Source: Eubacteriales bacterium (GTDB lineage Bacteria; Bacillota; Clostridia; Oscillospirales; Oscillospiraceae). From it: 64,000 bases of DNA. Below the pieces are notes generated by a model. That model did no database searches, was not told the DNA's origin, and worked only from the letters and a program-made list of their open reading frames with translations. Below, piece after piece: positions 11,774 to 23,391 of the stretch (its first letter is position 1; every line of letters starts with the position of its first letter). The position numbers were made by a program, and so were the translations under genes. The DNA is taken from assembly GCA_030533415.1 (NCBI GenBank), contig JAUNJE010000009.1:9268-73267 (forward strand), read 5' to 3'.

Positions 11774-12793
11774 TCATGCTTTTGACTGGGCTGTTTTCTT
11801 TGGATGGTTTTCATAATACCAGTTCAGGAATTCCCCGAAAATCCGTTCCTCTGCTTCTTTTCTCGCCTTCGCGGCGTCCTCGATTTTGGAATAGGTCCCC
11901 AGATTGTACAGCTTTCCCTTGAAGGTGATCTGGGCCTTCCATTTTCCACGGTAGGCCATTACCCCCGTGTAGCCGCTGGTGTTGTCTTTTCTCAGGCCCT
12001 TCCGTTCCAGCATTTCCACACAGGTTCCGTCGATATAACGCATGTAACTTACGGGACTTTCGTGCTCCTTGGGCAGGCAGCCGCAGCTTTTGGTGTTCCC
12101 CTGCACAAGACTGTTGTAGGAGACCTCAGTCTCCCCTCCGCAGTCACACCGGCACTTCCAGACCACACTGCCGCCCATGCGCCCTTCGGTGGGCTCCAGC
12201 GCAACCAGCCGCCCAAAACGCTGCCCGGCGATATCCCCGGCCCGCTTTTTCAGCATTTCGCTTCGGATGCAGCCACAGCTTTTGGTGCCGCCCTGCAGCA
12301 ATGCGTTGGCGGATACCTCCGTCAATTGCCCGCAGTCACAGCGGCACAGCCAGGCGTAGCTGGACCCCAGCTTTTTGTCCAGCCGCCGCAGGGCGGTGAG
12401 CCTGCCGAAGCGCTGGTTGGTCAGGTCCTTGATTTTATGCTCCGAGCGCAGGCAGCCGCAGCTTTCGATGACGCCGTTGGATATTTTGTAGCCCTCGGTC
12501 AGAAACTCCCGCCCGCAGTCACAGCGGCATTTCCAGAGGACCACGCCCCGGCGTTTTTCCTCCGTGGGCGCCAGGGCCACCACCTTCCCGGAACGCAGTC
12601 CGGTGATGTCCTTTTTCCGGCCTTCGCCCCGGGCGCAGCCGCAGGAGGTGAAAAACTTTGTCAGCAGCAAAGTATCCGCCAGGGTGACCGTATTGCCGCA
12701 GTCGCAGCGGCACAGGAGCCTGCCATCCTCCGTCTGTTCCAGCACCGTCAGCCTGCCAAAGCGCTGCCCCGTCAGGCTGGATGTTACCGTCAT
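11774..12793 (-). CDS. Cys-rich repeat plus C-terminal AP2-domain putative DNA-binding protein, copy 1
   Basis: Four ~62-aa repeats (DxxGQRFGRL..W.CRCDCG..SCGC) then NTSGYTGV..GKWKAQITFKGKLYNLGTY..EDAAKARKEAE; GGAGG RBS. Confidence 0.85.
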   Translation of the reverse strand: MTVTSSLTGQRFGRLTVLEQTEDGRLLCRCDCGNTVTLADTLLLTKFFTSCGCARGEGRKKDITGLRSGKVVALAPTEEKRRGVVLWKCRCDCGREFLTEGYKISNGVIESCGCLRSEHKIKDLTNQRFGRLTALRRLDKKLGSSYAWLCRCDCGQLTEVSANALLQGGTKSCGCIRSEMLKKRAGDIAGQRFGRLVALEPTEGRMGGSVVWKCRCDCGGETEVSYNSLVQGNTKSCGCLPKEHESPVSYMRYIDGTCVEMLERKGLRKDNTSGYTGVMAYRGKWKAQITFKGKLYNLGTYSKIEDAAKARKEAEERIFGEFLNWYYENHPKKTAQSKA

Positions 12794-13853
12794 GATTTCC
12801 CTCCTTCCGGCTATGGAAAGGGCGGCAGGGGATGGCTCCCGCTGCCGCCTTTTTTAGGGGTTACTTACTGCTTATCTGGTTTTCTTTTTCTTCACGGTGA
12901 GGATCAGCACCACGCCCAGAACCACCGCGCAGGCAACCAGCACGCCGATCCACAGGCCGATGTTGCTGGTGTCTCCGGTTTCGGGAATCAGGGAGATCTT
13001 GTTGGAGACGGTCACTTTCACGGTATCACTGGGCGTACCGGGAACGGGATCACCGCCAGCCTCGGTGATGACTACAGTATTCTTGATCACCGTTCCATTC
13101 TTCACACCGGACTTGACCGTGGCCTTGATGGTCAGTTTGGCGGTTTTGCCATTTTTCAGCTCGGAAATCGTCCACAGGCCGTCCTTGACCGCATAATTTC
13201 CATCGCCGCTGGCGCTGACAAAGGTCAGATTTGCATCCAGCTTTTCGGAAACGACGATATCTTCCAGGTCCTCGCCAGTCCTGTTGGTGACCTTGATGGT
13301 GTAAGTGATGGTCTTACCGGGACGCACTGTCGTGCGGTTGGCCGACTTATCGATGGTCAGTTTGCCGTAGTCCGGCGTCGGGTCAGGAGTAACAGACTCA
13401 TCAGGTTTGAATGACCAAACGCCCTCCAGAAGCATATCCTGCTGGATGTTCTTCAGTTCGGTGACCTTAGTGCCATTGTATGTCCAGCCCTCGAAGGTGA
13501 AGGTACCATCCTTACCATTATATTTACCCTTCCGGCTCTCGGGAACACCTTCCACGGTGTAGTCGCCACCCGCCGGGACAGTTGTGCCATCAGGTGCAGT
13601 ATATCCATCGGGAATCGTACCTGTAACTTGATAGGTCACATTGTATTTTTTCGCTGCAACGGTGTATTCTACAGTGGGCTTTTCGAAAGACTCGGGAACA
13701 CCATCACTTCCGTTAGAATCCTTAGGATACAGTATCGCACTTGTATTCGTATACAAGCCTTCATACCGCTTGGCTCCATCGGCATCATACTTGCCATATG
13801 TGCCTGCTTCGGTCTTGGGATTCATCAGCTTCACGGTGTAGGTCAACTGAACC
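11811..13853. repeat. Outer inverted repeat, left arm (~2043 bp; partner 21258-23300)
   Basis: Reverse complement of 21258-23300; covers the surface-protein 3' end, intergenic hairpin and AP2 gene; scattered mismatches mainly at the distal end. Confidence 0.95.
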
Positions 13854-16800
13854 GGGGCAAAGTTGGTAATCGGCTCATTGATGTACCATACGAAGTGCTC
13901 TTCTCCCTTACCGTTGCCCTTTACATAGGTTACGGTGTAGGCATAGCCTTCGCTCACCTTCTTGAAACCATACTCATTTTCACCAAGTTTGACTGCCTTG
14001 TAAGTTGCGTCGCCTATCTTCAATTCCATACTGTCGGCGTCATTTACAAAGTCAAAGTCATAATCACCCTCAACGTAGCCAATGAAATCCTCTACACGGG
14101 AACCTTTGTCTACCAAATAGAGAATGTCATTTTTGATGGTTTCAAAGCTGTACGTACTGCCACCAGCCAGGAACTCCATAAAGGAGGGACCCCATTCGTA
14201 TTGACCACCGCTGCCCGTATCAGCCTTGACAGCGTAGCAGTGATAGCCTTCCTGTGCGATAGACTGATAAGCCAAATAGGTTAAGTAAAGGGCTTTGTCG
14301 ATGGAGTTTGCATAATCGGACTGCTTTTCCACAGGCGTTGCATTGGTGACTGTGCCGCCATAAGGATACTCATACAGTGTTCCCTGGGCCGCAACCTGCT
14401 TGCTGACCGCAACCAGATAATCTTTCCAGCTCTCAGGCGCATCGTTGCTCTTATATTTGGAATTCCAGTTATCAGGACCTGCCCAATTCAGAACTGTATC
14501 TGCCTTAAAAGTCCAAGCGGTTACAGTTGGCACCGCATTGTACATATAAGTAATACCGTCACTGACAAAGATCAGATACTTGCGGCTGGCGGACACGGAT
14601 GTGTCAGCATCCAGCATAGCCTTGCCCGCAAGCAGTCCAGCGTGGGTATTCGTACCACTGGAAATCTCCTGCTTAATTGCTGCTTCGATAGCACTGTATT
14701 GCGTTGCAAGATCCATAAAGTTTGTGACATGCGCTTCGTTATTGAAAATCACAACGCCTACGTTGACTTTAGCGCTGGTATTTTGGATTTGCGTTTGCAG
14801 GTCCTTAAGCATCTGGAGTGCCTGGTTTTCCAAAGCCGCACTGGTGGATTTATCCAGCACAAACACGACATCGGAAACCAATTGCTGCTCTGCGGAAGGC
14901 AGAGACAGAGTTACCTTGGACTCAAAATTCTCATCCAGATTGGTAGCGGTCTTGGATTTGGAAACCTTCCAATCGGGGGTAACAACCGGCAGGTCAGGAA
15001 CGTCAACATTCAAGGCATGGGCAGCCTTCAAAGCCAATTTCCCGGTGAATGCTTTGCCGTAATCAGTATACTCCACGGTATAGGGTTTACCGCTATGGGC
15101 ATCCCAACGGAAGATGATTGGAATTCCGTCCTTATCTGTGGCATATCCGTCATAGTACCAACCGTCAATGGCATCGGTGCAATCGGGAGCGCCATCTAAG
15201 GCCCAATTAGAGCCAACTTTGCCGAAGGTGATAGTACCGACGTTGTAGATGTCGTCGCCAGCCTTATCGGCATGGTTATTATACAGAGAAATACTCTCGG
15301 AAAGCACCGCCTCCCCTTTGTTGTAAATGCCACCGCCGTAACTGTCGGTGCTATTATTCATAACTACGACATTTGCACCGGGGTCGACCTGTAACTTATA
15401 CGCGTTATAAATTCCGCCATCTTTATTCCGAAGGATTTCAACATTGGCGCCTTTTTCGATGGTCACATCGCCATACCAGTAGTTGCTGCCGGAATAAACC
15501 CATAGACCGCTTTTGGCATTATCATTCAGTTTGACGGCCGCGCCTGCCGCAATGGTACCCTTTCCGCCAACAGTGATTCCATTTCCCGTGTTTCCGCATG
15601 CTTCGACTTTAGAAGTGCCGTCAACTTCAAGCTCTTTGACAAAGATTCCCCAAGAAGATCCCTTGTTATTATTTGCAATCACTGCGGAACCATTGGTAAC
15701 GGTCAACTTGCCATAGTAGCATCCAAGGCCTCCACCATATGTCGCGGCACCGTTCCCAGTTAGACTCAGCGTCGAACTACCAGTAACGGTGAGATTAATC
15801 GGGTTAATGGTCATTCCATGCCAGCCGCAATTACTAATATTTACAGCCGAACTGCCACTAATTACAATCTCGCGATTAGGTTTACCGTCGTACTCCGAGT
15901 TGTCTGCGTAAATGCCACTGGCTTGCGCTCCATTGAATCCAGTGATATTCACAACAGAGCCACCGGTAATGTACAGATTACTTTCTTGGTAGAGATAAAT
16001 TCCACTTATCGCTTTATTGCTTGCCAAGTTCAGAACAGCATTATTCAGCGTCAAATTGGAGTTACTAATCAGATTGGCTGTACCTCCACTCGCCCCTGGG
16101 TTGTTTTCGACTTGCTGCATATCGAGTTCGCAGTTCTGGAATGTAAGCTTGCTTTTCGACGCATAGATACCCAACGCACCAAATGTGATCTTGTTTTTCC
16201 CACCATCAATGGTAATGGCCTTATCTTTGACAGTAAGTCCATTTACGTCACAGTCGGCCAGCAGTTCAATTGTATCACCATCTGATGCATTCTTTATGGC
16301 TTCGTCCAAGGTTTCGTATTCTGTTTCACCAATTTTGGCAACATATGTTGTTTCCAACGTCTGCAAGCCGCCAGTTAAGAAATCCATAGCCTTCTTCATT
16401 GTAGCTATTGCGGCTTGTACGTCCTCCCGGGCAAGTTCCTCTTCACTCAGCGCACCATACGCTTCTTGTGCCGCGCCAATTTGTTCGTTCAGTACGGGAC
16501 CGGTTTCCTCGTTGATTTCTTCCGGAAGCACAATAGCTGCAACGGCGTCTAAAAATGCCTTAACTGTGTCAGAAACTTCTTCCGGTTCACTTGCTTCTGT
16601 GTCCTTCTCAGCAACATATTTAGGACAGTCCTCTGTATGGGTTTCAGCTTCGCAATCGTCGTCCCCTGTGCATTCCTTCACAGTGACAAGTTTAGGGCAC
16701 CCCTCAACATGGGTCTCAGCTTCACAATTGTTGTCCTTGGTGCATTCCTTCACAGTGACAAGTTTAGGGCATCCCTCAACATGGGCTTCAGCTTCGCAAT

Positions 16801-16993
16801 TGTCATCCTTTATGCATCCCTCGGCAGCAACATATTTCGGACAGTCTGTAAAATGTGTGTCAGCCTCGCAATCAGCATTCTTTGTACACGTCAAGTTGTC
16901 CTCCGCCGATGCGGTTACCGGGCAAACGGAGAGCATCAGGACAGCCGCCAGCACCAGGGCCAAAAAGCGTTTTCCTTTCGTGTTCTTTCGCAT
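12872..16993 (-). CDS. Sortase-anchored vWA/beta-helix-like/DUF11-like surface protein, variant A
   Basis: Signal peptide MRKNTKGKRFLALVLAAVLMLSVCPVTASA; 24-aa Cys/His repeats; GG.IY repeat region; vWA MIDAS-like DVVFVLDKSTS...LIFVSDG; LTIDKSANRTTVRPGKTITYTIKVTN; IPETG + TM + KKKKTR. Alternative starts 17005/17017. Confidence 0.88.
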   Translation of the reverse strand: MRKNTKGKRFLALVLAAVLMLSVCPVTASAEDNLTCTKNADCEADTHFTDCPKYVAAEGCIKDDNCEAEAHVEGCPKLVTVKECTKDNNCEAETHVEGCPKLVTVKECTGDDDCEAETHTEDCPKYVAEKDTEASEPEEVSDTVKAFLDAVAAIVLPEEINEETGPVLNEQIGAAQEAYGALSEEELAREDVQAAIATMKKAMDFLTGGLQTLETTYVAKIGETEYETLDEAIKNASDGDTIELLADCDVNGLTVKDKAITIDGGKNKITFGALGIYASKSKLTFQNCELDMQQVENNPGASGGTANLISNSNLTLNNAVLNLASNKAISGIYLYQESNLYITGGSVVNITGFNGAQASGIYADNSEYDGKPNREIVISGSSAVNISNCGWHGMTINPINLTVTGSSTLSLTGNGAATYGGGLGCYYGKLTVTNGSAVIANNNKGSSWGIFVKELEVDGTSKVEACGNTGNGITVGGKGTIAAGAAVKLNDNAKSGLWVYSGSNYWYGDVTIEKGANVEILRNKDGGIYNAYKLQVDPGANVVVMNNSTDSYGGGIYNKGEAVLSESISLYNNHADKAGDDIYNVGTITFGKVGSNWALDGAPDCTDAIDGWYYDGYATDKDGIPIIFRWDAHSGKPYTVEYTDYGKAFTGKLALKAAHALNVDVPDLPVVTPDWKVSKSKTATNLDENFESKVTLSLPSAEQQLVSDVVFVLDKSTSAALENQALQMLKDLQTQIQNTSAKVNVGVVIFNNEAHVTNFMDLATQYSAIEAAIKQEISSGTNTHAGLLAGKAMLDADTSVSASRKYLIFVSDGITYMYNAVPTVTAWTFKADTVLNWAGPDNWNSKYKSNDAPESWKDYLVAVSKQVAAQGTLYEYPYGGTVTNATPVEKQSDYANSIDKALYLTYLAYQSIAQEGYHCYAVKADTGSGGQYEWGPSFMEFLAGGSTYSFETIKNDILYLVDKGSRVEDFIGYVEGDYDFDFVNDADSMELKIGDATYKAVKLGENEYGFKKVSEGYAYTVTYVKGNGKGEEHFVWYINEPITNFAPVQLTYTVKLMNPKTEAGTYGKYDADGAKRYEGLYTNTSAILYPKDSNGSDGVPESFEKPTVEYTVAAKKYNVTYQVTGTIPDGYTAPDGTTVPAGGDYTVEGVPESRKGKYNGKDGTFTFEGWTYNGTKVTELKNIQQDMLLEGVWSFKPDESVTPDPTPDYGKLTIDKSANRTTVRPGKTITYTIKVTNRTGEDLEDIVVSEKLDANLTFVSASGDGNYAVKDGLWTISELKNGKTAKLTIKATVKSGVKNGTVIKNTVVITEAGGDPVPGTPSDTVKVTVSNKISLIPETGDTSNIGLWIGVLVACAVVLGVVLILTVKKKKTR
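15156..15262. repeat. Internal 107-bp homology block, left (partner 19825-19931)
   Basis: Encodes AGDDIYNVGTITFGKVGSNWALDGAPDCTDAIDGWY in both paralogs; 2 synonymous mismatches by eye, flanked by divergent DNA. Confidence 0.9.
16613..16890 (-). repeat. Intragenic 72-bp tandem repeats (four Cys/His-rich 24-aa units)
   Basis: CTKNADCEADTHFTDCPKYV / CIKDDNCEAEAHVEGCPKLV / CTKDNNCEAETHVEGCPKLV / CTGDDDCEAETHTEDCPKYV. Confidence 0.85.
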
Positions 16994-17119
16994 CTTGTTT
17001 TCCATCCTTCCTTTCAATTCGTTCCATAGATAAATTTTCGGAGCAAATTTTCAGTCGGATAGGATATATTCCGCCATCCCATTCGTGACTTTGCCACATA
17101 ATTCATATTATGTAGTAAA
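16899..17119. repeat. Inner inverted repeat, left arm (221 bp; partner 17683-17903)
   Basis: Reverse complement of 17683-17903 with 2 mismatches; covers 5' leader, RBS and signal-peptide codons. Confidence 0.95.
17091..17118 (-). other. dif-like 28-bp candidate recombination site, left
   Basis: Minus strand TTACTACATAA-TATGAA-TTATGTGGCAA (11-6-11 dyad) at the inner edge of the repeat. Confidence 0.6.
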
Positions 17120-17224
17120 AATGAAAATTCGAACTCCATTTTAGAGCCAGTAAGAACGGCATAACCTGCCTTCTGCTGCTGTCTGTAGACAAGACGTTAC
17201 ATAGCCAGCCCTAAGTTTGGTTTC

Positions 17225-17253
17225 ATTATAGTACTAAAAAATTTTTTTGTCAA
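17225..17253 (-). promoter_or_regulatory. Sigma-A promoter directed at surface protein variant A
   Basis: Minus strand TTGACA (17253-17248), 17 bp, TATAAT (17230-17225), perfect consensus; no equivalent seen facing variant B. Confidence 0.85.
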
Positions 17254-17384
17254 TGGAAAACAGGGGATTTGGGCATGAAAAAATAAGCCTTTCCAGCCGC
17301 CAATTTTGGAAAGGCTTTGCCGTTATGTCATTTTTTGCCGAATTCTTGCCAATTTTCCCCAGGGGGATGGATCGCAGCGCACCA

Positions 17385-17666
17385 AAGCCTCCCTTGTGCA
17401 AAGGGAGGTGGCACGGCGTGAGCCGTGACGGAGGGATTGTGCGGTAACATCTCACGGTTTTGCCTAGCTTCCGGCAAATTCGCACTCCCTGCCGCAACAA
17501 TCCCTCAGTCAAAAATCAGAGATTTTTGACAGCTCCCTTTGCACAAGGGAGCCTTGGGCGCTCCCGCGCCAGTGATTCGCGGGAAAATTGGCTCAGAAAA
17601 TGATTGGATGCTTATCGATTTTGCTTGGCAAGCCTGATTTACAGCGCACAAGGGAGCCCTTGGCGC
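17385..17666. repeat. REP/REPIN-like palindromic cluster inside the spacer
   Basis: CCTCCCTTGTGCAAAGGGAGG and GCTCCCTTTGCACAAGGGAGC hairpins in inverted arrangement; GAGGGATTGT/ACAATCCCTC; GTCAAAAATC-AGA-GATTTTTGAC; partial third copy ~17646-17666. Confidence 0.7.
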
Positions 17667-17682
17667 GTCCAGGCTAGAACGG

Positions 17683-17903
17683 TTTACCACATAATATGAA
17701 TTATGTGGCAAAGTCACGAATGGGATGGCGGAATATATCCTGTCCGACTGAAAATTTGCTCCGAAAATTTATCTATGGAACGAATTGAAAGGAAGGATGG
17801 AAAACAAGATGCGAAAGAACACGAAAGGAAAACGCTTTTTGGCCCTGGTGCTGGCGGCTGTCCTGATGCTCTCCGTTTGCCCGGTAACCGCATCGGCGGA
17901 GGA
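17683..17903. repeat. Inner inverted repeat, right arm
   Basis: Reverse complement of 16899-17119. Confidence 0.95.
17684..17711 (+). other. dif-like 28-bp candidate recombination site, right
   Basis: TTACCACATAA-TATGAA-TTATGTGGCAA; inverted relative to 17091-17118 with one difference in the spacer-facing arm. Confidence 0.6.
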
Positions 17904-20900
17904 TACCGACTGTCAGCATAAGAATGTAAATCCACTTGAAGCAGTTGAGCCCACTTGCACTGAGGATGGATTAACTGCGGGAAAACAATGCCTTGATTGC
18001 AATGCTGTAACCGAAGCGCAGCAGACGATTCCGGCCACTGGCCACAGCTATGACAAAGGGAAAGTGACCCAAGAGCCAACTGCGGAAGAAGCAGGTGTAA
18101 AAACCTATACATGCAGTGTGTGTGGTGAAACATATACGGAGGGGATTCCTGCTACGGGCCCGGATCACCACTGGGATGAGGGAAAAGTGACTACCCAGGT
18201 GACGTGCACGGCAGAAGGTGTAATGACATACACCTGCACTGACGAAGGCTGCGAAGAAACCAAAACGGAGACGATTCCAGCCACTGGCCACAGCTGGGAC
18301 GAGGGGAAAGTGACCCAAGAGCCAACTGCGGAAAAAGCAGGTGTAAAAACCTATACATGCAGTGTATGTGGTGAAACATATACGGAGGAGATTCCTGCTA
18401 CGGGCACGGATCACCACTGGGATGAGGGAAAAGTAACTACCCCGGCGACGTGCACGGCAGAAGGTGTAATGACATACACCTGCACTGACGAGGGCTGCGA
18501 AGAAACCAAAACGGACACGATTCCAGCCACTGGACACAGCTATGGCGAGCCAACGTGGGATCGGGACGAAAAGGAGGAAAATTTCATTGCAACCTTTGTT
18601 TGCGCTACATGTGGGGCTTCGGAGACGGTGACTGCCACAATTGACGAAGATGGCAAAGCGGTTGTGACCTTTGGCGATGAAACATATTCTTATGAGTTTG
18701 AGGCCGCTCCTGTCGTTGATGCAGAACAGTTTGTTGCCCAAATTGGTAGCGAAAAATATGAGACTTTAGGTGAAGCTTTTCAGAAGGCCTGCACGATATC
18801 TCAAGAAACTAACACTACGGTGACAGTGGAGGTCTTGACAGACTGCGAGGAAAAGGCTAACAACATCCAAATAAAGAATGGTGGAAATGTAATTGTTAAA
18901 GCTGCCGACGGTGCTAACGTTACGGTCACTCTTACGGGAACAGGAGCATACCAAGCGACAACAGTAACAAACAGCTCGCTCACATTCCAGAATCTAACTA
19001 TCATTGATACATCCCTGATCGCACTGTATGAAAATGCTATCTTAACCTTTGATAATGTCAATTTGTCCATGGATGGCACAAATGTTCAGGTCGTCAGTAA
19101 TGGATATTATTCTTGCGCGATTGCACTTGAGAATCCGAAAACTACTTTGGTCTTCAAAAATTCTAAAGTTCACATTGAGAATTATCCCGGAACAGGCAGC
19201 GGCATCAGATGGGATTCTGAGCTGGATGGATACTCTATTAAATTTCTAAACGGTACGAACTTTACGGTCACAAAATGCTATTCCGGATTCACCGGTACAA
19301 ACAATATTACCATTGAGGATAGTACTGTTAATGTATATGAAAACAGAGGAAATGGGTCTAATGGCTCCAATTTTGAAATAAAAAACTCCACTGTAAATTT
19401 CAATAACAATGGTTCTCATGGCCTCTCTGCTGGTAAATTGCTTATTGATAATTCGACTGTTACTGCGAATGGCAATGGCGGAAATGGTATCCATACAAAT
19501 AGTACATTGACAATTCAAAACAAATCGACGGTCACTGTTGCGGAAAATAAATGTTCTATCAGCAGCAAATGGACCATTCCCGGAGCTGTCCATATCGGAG
19601 CAGGTGATTCTGTAATTAAAGATAGTACCGTCATGATTCAGAATAACAGTGGCTCAGGTATTTATCAGAAGTCTGCTAGTGGTTCCCTGACGATTGAGGA
19701 CAGCGCTAATGTAACCATTGTGAAAAACACCGCTGAAAAACTGGGCCTTGGCGGCGGTATTTATGTCAACGGTACTGTAACACTTGCCAACAATGTTGTT
19801 CTCTATAACAACCATGCGGGTACTGCTGGCGACGACATCTACAACGTCGGTACTATCACCTTTGGCAAAGTTGGCTCTAATTGGGCCTTAGATGGCGCTC
19901 CCGATTGCACCGATGCCATTGACGGCTGGTATGTCGATGCTGAAAATAACCGCTGGGTAGCCCATAAAACTCCCGTCCATGTAGAGGAGTTTACCAGCGG
20001 CACGGTTACATCTTCTTCTGAAAATCCCCTGGCGCTGAAGGCTGCCCACAAGCTGATACCGCTTCAGCCTGGTGATTCCTCCCACAGTTGGGAGCACTCC
20101 AAGTCCAAAACGGCGACCGAACTGGACGAGAATTATGCGTCCAAGGTAACTCTGTCTCTCCCCAGCGGTCAAACGCCGGTGGAATATGACGTGATGTTTG
20201 TGTTGGATAAGTCCAAGAGTACTGAAAAAGAGCAGATTGCCGATGAAGTAGAGAAGCTTTTGGACAAGATTCAAGGTTCCAAGGCCAAGGTGAATATCGG
20301 TGTCGTTACCTTCAACAACAATGCAAATACCTACCTGCCTTTGACGGAGCTAACCGCCAGCAGTCTGCCTAAAATTACAGAAGCAATCAATACCACTATC
20401 AGTTCCGGCACGAATATCCATGCCGGTTTGCAGAAGGGCATTGAGCTGCTTGAGGCTGGAAGTGCAGAGGAAAAATATCTTATCCTTGTCACTGACGGCA
20501 TCACCTATCTCTATAACGATGATGCGGGCAACGGCCCCTTGGGCATCAGCTATGAAGGCACAGCCGAGTCGCTGCATTATTCCTATAAATATGGCACCGG
20601 CAAAGCGCCGACAGAGTGGGAAAACCCGATGGATTGGGGCACATATTTAGGCGTCATCGATGGGCTGGTTAAGGAAGATGGAACCCGATTCGAGGGATCA
20701 TGGAATTCCACTGGCGCTACTGTAAACTCAGCGGAAAGACTGAAAAGCCCGTCTTACTCAGACGGTAACAGCATTGCGGATCATGCTATGTCTGCCGATA
20801 AAGCCCTGTTACTGACCTATCAGGAATATGAAAAGGCAATTCAGAAATTCGGCAAAGACCACGTCTATGCAGTTACGAAAGAGTTCACAACTGCCGAATT

Positions 20901-22239
20901 CCTGTGGGGAAACAGCTTCGTGGACTATCTGTCCAGCATTTCTGCGAATGAGCAGGACATTGGAACCATTATCAATCGTGACATCTACTATTTGCTCGAC
21001 GCCGGTTCCAGCGTTAAGGACTACATTGGCTTTGTTGAGAATGATTACAACTTCGACTTTGTAAACGATGTCAGCGCCCTTTCGCTGAAGGTGGGCGAGG
21101 TAACCTACGAGGCAGAAGAAATCGAAACCAATAAATATGGCTTTGTTCCGAATGAGAAGGGCGGCTACGATTACGTTGTTACTTACAACGAGGGCAACCT
21201 TGAGGACACAGAGCATTTTGTCTGGGAAATCAATGTTCCTGTCACCATTGATAAAGTGGTTCAGCTGACCTACACCGTGAAGCTGATGAATCCCAAGACC
21301 GAAGCAGGCACATATGGCAAGTATGATGCCGATGGAGCCAAGCGGTATGAAGGCTTGTATACGAATACAAGTGCGATACTGTATCCTAAGGATTCTAACG
21401 GAAGTGATGGTGTTCCCGAGTCTTTCGAAAAGCCCACTGTAGAATACACCGTTGCAGCGAAAAAATACAATGTGACCTATCAAGTTACAGGTACGATTCC
21501 CGATGGATATACTGCACCTGATGGCACAACTGTCCCGGCGGGTGGCGACTACACCGTGGAAGGTGTTCCCGAGAGCCGGAAGGGTAAATATAATGGTAAG
21601 GATGGTACCTTCACCTTCGAGGGCTGGACATACAATGGCACTAAGGTCACCGAACTGAAGAACATCCAGCAGGATATGCTTCTGGAGGGCGTTTGGTCAT
21701 TCAAACCTGATGAGTCTGTTACTCCTGACCCGACGCCGGACTACGGCAAACTGACCATCGATAAGTCGGCCAACCGCACGACAGTGCGTCCCGGTAAGAC
21801 CATCACTTACACCATCAAGGTCACCAACAGGACTGGCGAGGACCTGGAAGATATCGTCGTTTCCGAAAAGCTGGATGCAAATCTGACCTTTGTCAGCGCC
21901 AGCGGCGATGGAAATTATGCGGTCAAGGACGGCCTGTGGACGATTTCCGAGCTGAAAAATGGCAAAACCGCCAAACTGACCATCAAGGCCACGGTCAAGT
22001 CCGGTGTGAAGAATGGAACGGTGATCAAGAATACTGTAGTCATCACCGAGGCTGGCGGTGATCCCGTTCCCGGTACGCCCAGTGATACCGTGAAAGTGAC
22101 CGTCTCCAACAAGATCTCCCTGATTCCCGAAACCGGAGACACCAGCAACATCGGCCTGTGGATCGGCGTGCTGGTTGCCTGCGCGGTGGTTCTGGGCGTG
22201 GTGCTGATCCTCACCGTGAAGAAAAAGAAAACCAGATAA
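17809..22239 (+). CDS. Sortase-anchored vWA/beta-helix-like/DUF11-like surface protein, variant B
   Basis: Same signal peptide and same last ~325 aa as variant A; different Cys/His repeats (H.WDEGKVT..TCT.EG..TYTC); vWA DVMFVLDKSKS...LILVTDG; IPETG anchor. Alternative starts 17797/17785. Confidence 0.88.
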   Translation: MRKNTKGKRFLALVLAAVLMLSVCPVTASAEDTDCQHKNVNPLEAVEPTCTEDGLTAGKQCLDCNAVTEAQQTIPATGHSYDKGKVTQEPTAEEAGVKTYTCSVCGETYTEGIPATGPDHHWDEGKVTTQVTCTAEGVMTYTCTDEGCEETKTETIPATGHSWDEGKVTQEPTAEKAGVKTYTCSVCGETYTEEIPATGTDHHWDEGKVTTPATCTAEGVMTYTCTDEGCEETKTDTIPATGHSYGEPTWDRDEKEENFIATFVCATCGASETVTATIDEDGKAVVTFGDETYSYEFEAAPVVDAEQFVAQIGSEKYETLGEAFQKACTISQETNTTVTVEVLTDCEEKANNIQIKNGGNVIVKAADGANVTVTLTGTGAYQATTVTNSSLTFQNLTIIDTSLIALYENAILTFDNVNLSMDGTNVQVVSNGYYSCAIALENPKTTLVFKNSKVHIENYPGTGSGIRWDSELDGYSIKFLNGTNFTVTKCYSGFTGTNNITIEDSTVNVYENRGNGSNGSNFEIKNSTVNFNNNGSHGLSAGKLLIDNSTVTANGNGGNGIHTNSTLTIQNKSTVTVAENKCSISSKWTIPGAVHIGAGDSVIKDSTVMIQNNSGSGIYQKSASGSLTIEDSANVTIVKNTAEKLGLGGGIYVNGTVTLANNVVLYNNHAGTAGDDIYNVGTITFGKVGSNWALDGAPDCTDAIDGWYVDAENNRWVAHKTPVHVEEFTSGTVTSSSENPLALKAAHKLIPLQPGDSSHSWEHSKSKTATELDENYASKVTLSLPSGQTPVEYDVMFVLDKSKSTEKEQIADEVEKLLDKIQGSKAKVNIGVVTFNNNANTYLPLTELTASSLPKITEAINTTISSGTNIHAGLQKGIELLEAGSAEEKYLILVTDGITYLYNDDAGNGPLGISYEGTAESLHYSYKYGTGKAPTEWENPMDWGTYLGVIDGLVKEDGTRFEGSWNSTGATVNSAERLKSPSYSDGNSIADHAMSADKALLLTYQEYEKAIQKFGKDHVYAVTKEFTTAEFLWGNSFVDYLSSISANEQDIGTIINRDIYYLLDAGSSVKDYIGFVENDYNFDFVNDVSALSLKVGEVTYEAEEIETNKYGFVPNEKGGYDYVVTYNEGNLEDTEHFVWEINVPVTIDKVVQLTYTVKLMNPKTEAGTYGKYDADGAKRYEGLYTNTSAILYPKDSNGSDGVPESFEKPTVEYTVAAKKYNVTYQVTGTIPDGYTAPDGTTVPAGGDYTVEGVPESRKGKYNGKDGTFTFEGWTYNGTKVTELKNIQQDMLLEGVWSFKPDESVTPDPTPDYGKLTIDKSANRTTVRPGKTITYTIKVTNRTGEDLEDIVVSEKLDANLTFVSASGDGNYAVKDGLWTISELKNGKTAKLTIKATVKSGVKNGTVIKNTVVITEAGGDPVPGTPSDTVKVTVSNKISLIPETGDTSNIGLWIGVLVACAVVLGVVLILTVKKKKTR
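18025..18545 (+). repeat. Intragenic tandem duplication with 246-bp (82-aa) period
   Basis: ACGATTCC(G/A)GCCACTGG(C/A)CACAGC recurs at 18025, 18271 and 18517 with near-identical intervening DNA. Confidence 0.85.
19825..19931. repeat. Internal 107-bp homology block, right
   Basis: Reverse complement of 15156-15262. Confidence 0.9.
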
Positions 22240-23300
22240 GCAGTAAGTAACCCCTAAAAAAGGCGGCAGCGGGAGCCATCCCCTGCCGCCCTTTCCATAG
22301 CCGGAAGGAGGGAAATCATGACGGTAACATCCAGCCTGACGGGGCAGCGCTTTGGCAGGCTGACGGTGCTGGAACAGACGGAGGATGGCAGGCTCCTGTG
22401 CCGCTGCGACTGCGGCAATACGGTCACCCTGGCGGATACTTTGCTGCTGACAAAGTTTTTCACCTCCTGCGGCTGCGCCCGGGGCGAAGGCCGGAAAAAG
22501 GACATCACCGGACTGCGTTCCGGGAAGGTGGTGGCCCTGGCGCCCACGGAGGAAAAACGCCGGGGCGTGGTCCTCTGGAAATGCCGCTGTGACTGCGGGC
22601 GGGAGTTTCTGACCGAGGGCTACAAAATATCCAACGGCGTCATCGAAAGCTGCGGCTGCCTGCGCTCGGAGCATAAAATCAAGGACCTGACCAACCAGCG
22701 CTTCGGCAGGCTCACCGCCCTGCGGCGGCTGGACAAAAAGCTGGGGTCCAGCTACGCCTGGCTGTGCCGCTGTGACTGCGGGCAATTGACGGAGGTATCC
22801 GCCAACGCATTGCTGCAGGGCGGCACCAAAAGCTGTGGCTGCATCCGGAGCGAAATGCTGAAAAAGCGGGCCGGAGACATCGCCGGGCAGCGTTTTGGGC
22901 GGCTGGTTGCGCTGGAGCCCACCGAAGGACGCATGGGCGGCAGTGTGGTCTGGAAGTGCCGGTGTGACTGCGGCGGGGAGACAGAGGTCTCCTACAACAG
23001 TCTGGTGCAGGGGAATACCAAAAGCTGCGGCTGTCTGCCCAAGGAGCACGAAAGTCCCGTAAGTTACATGCGTTATATCGACGGCACCTGTGTGGAAATG
23101 CTGGAACGGAAGGGCCTGAGAAAAGACAACACCAGCGGCTACACGGGGGTAATGGCCTACCGTGGAAAATGGAAGGCCCAGATCACCTTCAAGGGAAAGC
23201 TGTACAATCTGGGGACCTATTCCAAAATCGAGGACGCCGCAAAGGCGAGAAAAGAAGCAGAAGAACGGATTTTCGGAGAATTCCTGGACTGGTATTATGA
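21258..23300. repeat. Outer inverted repeat, right arm
   Basis: Reverse complement of 11811-13853. Confidence 0.95.
22256..22294. terminator. GC-rich hairpin between surface gene and AP2 gene (mirror copy at 12817-12855)
   Basis: AAAAAA-GGCGGCAG(C)GGGA...TCCCCTGCCGCC-CTTT; weak U-tail in the sense direction. Confidence 0.55.
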
Positions 23301-23391
23301 GCATTTTCCCCCAAAAGGGAAAACGGGACTCACCGTCAAAGCCAATGACGCCCAATATACAGGCCCGGCATGCAGAAAAACACGCGAATAA
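22318..23391 (+). CDS. Cys-rich repeat plus AP2-domain protein, copy 2
   Basis: Identical to copy 1 up to EERIFGEFL, then a different and longer C-terminal tail. Confidence 0.85.
   Translation: MTVTSSLTGQRFGRLTVLEQTEDGRLLCRCDCGNTVTLADTLLLTKFFTSCGCARGEGRKKDITGLRSGKVVALAPTEEKRRGVVLWKCRCDCGREFLTEGYKISNGVIESCGCLRSEHKIKDLTNQRFGRLTALRRLDKKLGSSYAWLCRCDCGQLTEVSANALLQGGTKSCGCIRSEMLKKRAGDIAGQRFGRLVALEPTEGRMGGSVVWKCRCDCGGETEVSYNSLVQGNTKSCGCLPKEHESPVSYMRYIDGTCVEMLERKGLRKDNTSGYTGVMAYRGKWKAQITFKGKLYNLGTYSKIEDAAKARKEAEERIFGEFLDWYYEHFPPKGKTGLTVKANDAQYTGPACRKTRE

Follow-up and report, generated by a model that had tools for sequence, protein, structure and literature searches.

How a single promoter lying between two divergent surface-protein genes may come to serve either of them is the question raised by the locus described here, which is part of a window of 64,000 nucleotides (the whole stretch of DNA that was analysed) from a bacterium of the order Eubacteriales (assembly GCA_030533415.1). 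The promoter segment is bordered by two inverted sites that resemble dif, and the original prediction held that a Xer-like recombinase encoded elsewhere, possibly the housekeeping one, flips the segment, with transcription-factor operators as an alternative. Judging from sequence comparisons, the window probably holds an orphan either/or switch from a family that is very common in Clostridia, driven in trans by a recombinase of that family.

The site pair and the segment between the paralogs

Both 28-mers occupy the positions that had been predicted for them (Table 1). Their asymmetric 6-nt cores are identical in inverted reading, and the single difference between them (17114/17688) falls in the spacer-facing arm. 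The sites are located where the two arms of a 221-nt inverted repeat (16899-17119 / 17683-17903) end on the inner side; these arms are 99% identical, and the homology, which was expected to end within about a base of the sites, stops one base inside them. A second marker difference, proposed at 17061/17741, is actually found at 17060/17742. The arms of both sites fit the profile WWACMACATAA of the recombinase family discussed below. When the whole 2.72-Mb genome (G000) was scanned for further copies of the 28-mer, allowing up to 7 mismatches, two more were found, both on contig C67 and both with TGTGAA instead of TATGAA as their core. That only these two matches occur in the genome, together with the association of the motif with a recombinase family in the genus, argues that the sites are not a product of chance.

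Table 1. Features of the switch locus and its surroundings (positions in the window; "." where no strand is given).
Feature	Position	Strand	Remarks
HNH-endonuclease-like gene behind gene A	11774-12793	-	Cysteine repeats; within the 2043-nt outer inverted repeat
Left cargo gene A, surface protein of about 1370 aa, VWA + DUF11	12872-16993	-	C-terminal IPETG sortase-type motif; predicted ON as assembled
5' leader, ribosome site and 32-codon signal-peptide start of left gene	16899-17090	-	Part of the 221-nt repeat
Putative left recombination site, 28-mer 11-6-11	17091-17118	-	TTACTACATAA-TATGAA-TTATGTGGCAA; core reads outward; promoter end of segment
Predicted invertible segment, 565 nt between sites	17119-17683	.	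Whole copy including sites, 621 nt
Predicted sigma-70/sigma-A consensus promoter, TTGACA-17-TATAAT	17225-17253	-	12/12 consensus match; faces left gene
12-bp hairpin behind promoter, possible terminator	17285-17317	.	z -1.78, weak
REP-like palindromic repeat copy inside segment	17374-17649	.	Many matches on other contigs
Putative right recombination site, 28-mer 11-6-11	17684-17711	+	TTACCACATAA-TATGAA-TTATGTGGCAA; non-promoter end of segment
Leader and signal-peptide start of right gene	17712-17903	+	One base off left counterpart (17742 vs 17060)
Right cargo gene B, paralog of about 1475 aa, VWA + DUF11	17809-22239	+	Predicted OFF as assembled
Second HNH-like gene copy, behind gene B	22318-23391	+	phrog_374, E 4e-77

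The segment contains an outward-facing promoter, as is characteristic of invertible promoters, predicted here from its consensus match; no promoter-like site was found on the plus strand within 16900-17950. The hairpin behind the promoter was not called in a terminator scan, and similar hairpins are present in the segments of relatives. The segment is longer than the family median of 233 nt, and most of this extra length is due to an inserted REP-like repeat, for which an Rfam search returned nothing near the gathering score. This palindromic repeat is abundant throughout the genome, and many contigs end in it.

The proteins encoded by genes A and B are 48% identical overall and identical at both ends, and the protein cluster of gene B has one member on one contig. 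Together the two genes are framed by an outer inverted repeat of 2043 nt (11811-13853 / 21258-23300). A third surface-protein paralog, 61% identical in its C-terminal part, was identified on another contig (L060, G000:C14:8965-13077), and no recombination site was found near it. The HNH-like genes of the window carry repeated CxCDCG motifs, and a third copy of this gene (93% aa; L061, G000:C47:96297-97307) lies behind a sortase gene. Relatives of the HNH-like gene were also seen near family recombinases in four loci (L019, L026, L034 and L153); it is possibly a mobile passenger of recombinase cassettes.

A recombinase family with paired sites

The two further sites on C67 border a second copy of the segment (G000:C67:33-652), which is 98.7% identical to that of the window over 623 nt. 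As assembled, both sites of the C67 pair have TGTGAA as their core and both sites of the window pair TATGAA. The gene of a 279-aa tyrosine recombinase (G000:C67:697-1536) ends 44 nt beyond one of the C67 sites, and its product matches PF00589 and PF02899, both above cut-off. The catalytic R-K-H-R-H-Y residues (R138, K160/K162, H225, R228, H251 and Y260) are invariant in 25/25 aligned family members, and they are intact in the C67 enzyme. This enzyme scores 115-120 bits against XerC/XerD cut-offs of 330-335, while a separate gene in the same genome passes the XerD cut-off and a XerC-like gene falls below its own. The expectation that the enzyme is encoded elsewhere agrees with the distribution of PF00589, which has no match on the window's contig (C62, 78.7 kb) and eight on other contigs; a tyrosine invertase is present within 5 kb of the C67 copy and absent from the whole contig of the window copy. 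Five near-identical recombinase proteins were found in other records, four of them on contigs of 912-927 nt, and this short length hints at assembly branches on both sides of the recombinase gene.

The family to which this recombinase belongs is present in 98/400 genomes of the genus and has relatives in at least 588 metagenome stretches; named relatives are Clostridia. In total 120 loci were examined (29 from the genus, 11 GTDB contigs and 80 from metagenomes, some of them near-duplicates). A pair of ACATAA-N6-TTATGT sites was detected in 91/120, with a median spacing of 233 nt and the first site just behind the recombinase stop codon; the 29 loci lacking a pair comprised 14 with less than 450 nt after the gene, 12 with no site and three with one. 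The cores were reverse-complementary in all 91 paired loci, which together show 45 different cores, and there was no two-site locus with unmatched cores. Shuffling the pairs among loci gave 3.5 core matches on average and a maximum of 14, against the 91 observed. Across the genus, at least two exact ACATAA-N6-TTATGT sites occur in 71/98 genomes with the family and 3/302 without it, and at least one in 83/98 and 34/302, respectively, related genomes not being independent in these counts.

Both orientations of the segment are represented in the family. Among 31 paired genus and GTDB loci, a count that left out the window genome's own locus, a promoter-like sequence near one end of the segment pointed away from the recombinase in nine, toward it in 20 and was unclear in two; the numbers for 55 metagenome loci were nine, 33 and 13, respectively. 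Homologous segments (at least 85% alike) were inverted relative to the recombinase in four of 22 close pairs, for example in L090/L091, which share 92% identity in the segment and 97.6% in recombinase DNA. Among the matches listed from other genus genomes (150 of 472, plus 20 genomes chosen for extra sites), 44 pairs had matched cores, of which 41 lay beside a family recombinase, two at a contig edge and one as an orphan. One mismatched pair was present among the 45 pairs so listed (G157:C37, outside the set of 120 loci); it adjoins a recombinase that is apparently shortened at its start (L168, L169). This orphan, the second after the window copy, is in G188, where the matched pair (L162:5429-5746, G188:C4) lies about 1.2 kb upstream of the gene of a large secreted protein; no family recombinase was found in the 11 kb fetched around it from this genome, which is 73% complete.

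The matched cores and the site pattern across the family bear out the prediction that tyrosine-recombinase sites border the promoter segment, and we consider the nature of the window 28-mers settled with high confidence as invertase sites. The second copy behind a recombinase, the family with its matched-core pairs and the homologous segments in both orientations identify the window copy, as assembled, as an orphan of this kind.

Enzyme, layout and rival explanations

The explanation that we favour, and consider reasonably likely, is that a recombinase of the C67 type flips the promoter segment of the window in trans and thereby selects gene A or gene B. One recombinase protein would bind the two nearly symmetric arms at each site, and strands would be exchanged across the 6-nt core, which would invert the 565-nt segment. 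As assembled, transcription from the promoter would cross the left site and enter gene A; once the segment has flipped, it would cross the right site and reach gene B by way of the same leader. Each site has a copy of the leader, ribosome site and signal peptide on its outer side, so either orientation would give an equivalent transcript start with the other gene silenced, so that A and B would be expressed exclusively.

Three other explanations concern the sites themselves or the activity that acts on them. Dyads serving only as transcription-factor operators are extremely improbable, even if a precedent for such a role may exist in this genome, where two similar CATAA-N6-TTATG dyads flank a TetR-like gene on C38 (G000:C38:100746-100773 and 101433-101460). 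These are likely operators of that gene, and were rejected as part of the switch on account of their unmatched spacers and TetR context. Strand exchange by tyrosine recombinases requires matching spacers within a pair, whereas an operator does not; the spacers vary among loci yet match within the pair in all 91 paired loci, across 45 different ones, which argues against operators, as do the location of sites a few bases behind the recombinase stop codon and the segments found inverted between such sites. Co-option of the housekeeping XerC/XerD is highly improbable too. The window sites share with dif the 11-6-11 geometry and the inner CATAA-N6-TTATGT letters, and the genome encodes the XerD and XerC-like proteins mentioned above. 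However, dif is a single site at the terminus with arms that differ, each serving another protein, whereas sites of the window type are near-perfect dyads (9-10/11 vs 6/11 for E. coli dif), paired, with locus-specific cores, an enzyme of their own and four copies in the genome; the window arms match those of E. coli dif at 5-6 and, for the XerD arm, 7 of 11 places, and across the genus the motif goes with the dedicated family, a member of which adjoins the second segment copy. Some cross-reaction of the host XerC/XerD at the window sites may occur, the comparison having been made with the dif of E. coli; a candidate host dif on C3 was rejected, as it was not conserved (3/36 genus genomes, all with a mismatch). 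The original prediction is therefore partly supported: the sites are real and its general idea was right, but the enzyme was wrong. A further explanation accepts the layout and attributes inversion mainly to homologous recombination of the RecA type in the repeats of 221 or 2043 nt, the sites being leftovers of a duplication. Repeats of this size are long enough for homologous recombination, those of the window are 99% identical, and the genes are mosaic with identical ends. We nevertheless regard it as very unlikely, given that the repeats cease to match one base inside the sites, that both window sites keep intact arms and a shared core distinct from that of the C67 copy, and that the genome encodes an intact cognate enzyme.

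The layout itself requires closer consideration, since the divergent arrangement could stem from the assembler, a possibility absent from the original prediction. The assembly was made with k=55, and 65/160 contig ends share a 55-nt overlap with another place. Over 528 nt (17107-17634) there is no difference between the window and C67 copies of the segment; elsewhere they differ in their cores, in one outer-arm base and in four bases at 17635-17661 near the non-promoter end. C67 starts with an inverted recombinase-side flank, at an exact 55-mer where two ends branch, while contig C5 starts with the 5' end of an apparent second copy of the recombinase gene, through which alone this copy is visible, and continues into different upstream DNA. 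In the assembly graph, recombinase flanks, gene flanks and segments thus each occur twice, with all four end-flank junctions present, and the graph allows either gene-switch-gene and recombinase-switch-recombinase with matched cores or two standard cassettes with mismatched cores. Given k=55 and 528 exact shared bases, the pairing of the ends rests on the read pairs of the source. The window's contig further runs through an exact inverted repeat of 1582 nt, too long for short pairs to span, and because of this repeat the assignment of A and B to the outer flanks is not fixed. Other long exact repeats of 721-2816 nt are passed elsewhere in the assembly; those of 1.1-2.8 kb, which are passed or duplicated, include G000:C73:89275-90399 / 131486-132610, C45/C51 and C15/C26.

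Several further comparisons were made for the four flanks. GC skew is compatible with both layouts. In terms of synteny, the closest relatives reach just 66-76% similarity at the protein level, and neighbouring genes vary widely among 20 regions; two to three of these regions place a part of C62 by the C5 gene, and this is not the part that adjoins the cassette. The recombinase-switch-recombinase layout was not found among the 80 metagenome loci, one of which (L124) has a contig ending in an inverted flank, and the exact site pattern of the window had no match in the metagenome collection. One DNA run (13% of words) contained single 151-nt pieces, at depth 2 and with no joints, on the window and the C67 copy; one such piece shows one difference to the C67 promoter-end site and three to that of the window, which is too little for phasing. 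A flipped window locus was found neither among the contigs nor in these sparse depth-2 reads.

A mis-pairing by the assembler would mean that the genome has two cassettes of the ordinary kind, one with gene A (recombinase-switch-gene A, ON) and one with gene B (recombinase-switch-gene B, OFF), which were crossed in the 528-nt middle. The window sites would then be genuine but would stem from separate cassettes. Both of these would carry a TGTGAA/TATGAA mismatch, which would make local flipping slower, although long-distance recombination between the two TATGAA sites could still take place. We consider this unlikely, though clearly less so than the three explanations above. The graph permits it, C67 starts at a branching 55-mer, the standard cassette layout is the rule among relatives, and the pair of G157:C37 indicates that mismatched cassettes are possible; it is above all the rarity of orphans and the ability of the assembler to pass repeats longer than short read pairs that keep it alive. 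It requires, however, that both cassettes be mismatched, and in opposite orientations, where mismatches number 0/91 in paired loci and 1/45 in the listed genus pairs, and exchange across a mismatched core would, from the mechanism of tyrosine recombinases, tend to equalise the cores. The matching-core rule therefore favours the layout as assembled.

For the favoured explanation, in which the layout is real and a recombinase acts in trans, an origin from a standard recombinase-switch-cargo gene cassette can be proposed. The cassette would have been duplicated, and the recombinase-side site of one copy would have recombined with the gene-side site of the other, with gene-switch-gene (window) and recombinase-switch-recombinase (C67/C5) as the outcome. 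A one-base change in the core, copied to both sites, would now prevent recombination between the two loci. All four flanks that this model requires exist in the assembly. We tentatively suggest that a common ON/OFF switch became an A-or-B antigenic switch between two adhesin paralogs when its own enzyme made two mirror-image loci, with the one-base core as the address that separates them and one enzyme serving both; the promoter of the second locus would then point at the tail of either recombinase copy. If the layout holds, the locus would offer a natural case of an ON/OFF promoter with a linked recombinase developing into an either/or surface-protein switch driven in trans, with the core as an insulating code. 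If the layout is an artefact, it would caution that the assembly of short-read genome bins can join phase-variable cassettes into divergent gene pairs that do not exist.

Relation to known inversion systems

Invertible promoters moved by a recombinase include E. coli fimS with FimB/FimE and those served by RecV in C. difficile and Mpi in Bacteroides fragilis, of which RecV and Mpi act at distant sites and Mpi is a serine enzyme. Their site sequences are unrelated to those of the window, and they are mostly ON/OFF instead of A-or-B switches. In the sap locus of Campylobacter fetus, the inverting promoter segment is placed between divergent surface-protein genes that have their 5' ends in common; this segment is of kilobase scale and its inversion is driven by homology, whereas the window has defined 11-6-11 sites at which homology ends.

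The sap locus is also named in PMC5634654. According to PMC5634654 and PMC11868660, the tyrosine recombinase Xer1 of Mycoplasma agalactiae switches the vpma surface-protein paralogs by site-specific inversion. As described there, vpma is a multi-gene shufflon with an adjoining recombinase, whereas at the window locus just two genes are involved, the segment carries only the promoter and the enzyme is encoded at a distance. Inversions that select one of several surface paralogs are already known from vpma/Xer1 and sap. A literature search, mostly of sources other than subscription journals and the supplement of PMC11892184, found no paper on covarying cores or on an orphan either/or switch.

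The main text of PMC11892184 describes 33 invertons of inverton group 139, 32 of them from Clostridia, linked to tyrosine invertase group 35. The invertase is reported within 5 kb in nearly all of them, the motif is called new, and for two examples of about 255 nt a change of orientation is shown from reads. The recombinase family described here resembles this group, as presented there, in its small size, its gut-Clostridia hosts and its adjacent tyrosine recombinase, and is likely identical with inverton group 139 / invertase group 35 based on size, host class and adjacency. The window copy differs from the group as described in having no invertase on its 78.7-kb contig, a length of 621 nt with an inserted repeat, and two divergent paralogs.

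The dif-like appearance of the window sites thus belongs to a very common invertase family of gut Clostridia. If the core indeed acts as an address, the 45 natural cores in 91 loci would make this family a ready-made source of mutually orthogonal sites. In one genome (G222; L166, L167), two cassettes share the same core. Finally, some variants, seen in L041, L045 and L172 and in G078, G145, G147 and G259, have three or four sites with one common core spaced about 40 nt apart, an arrangement that would permit more than two states.
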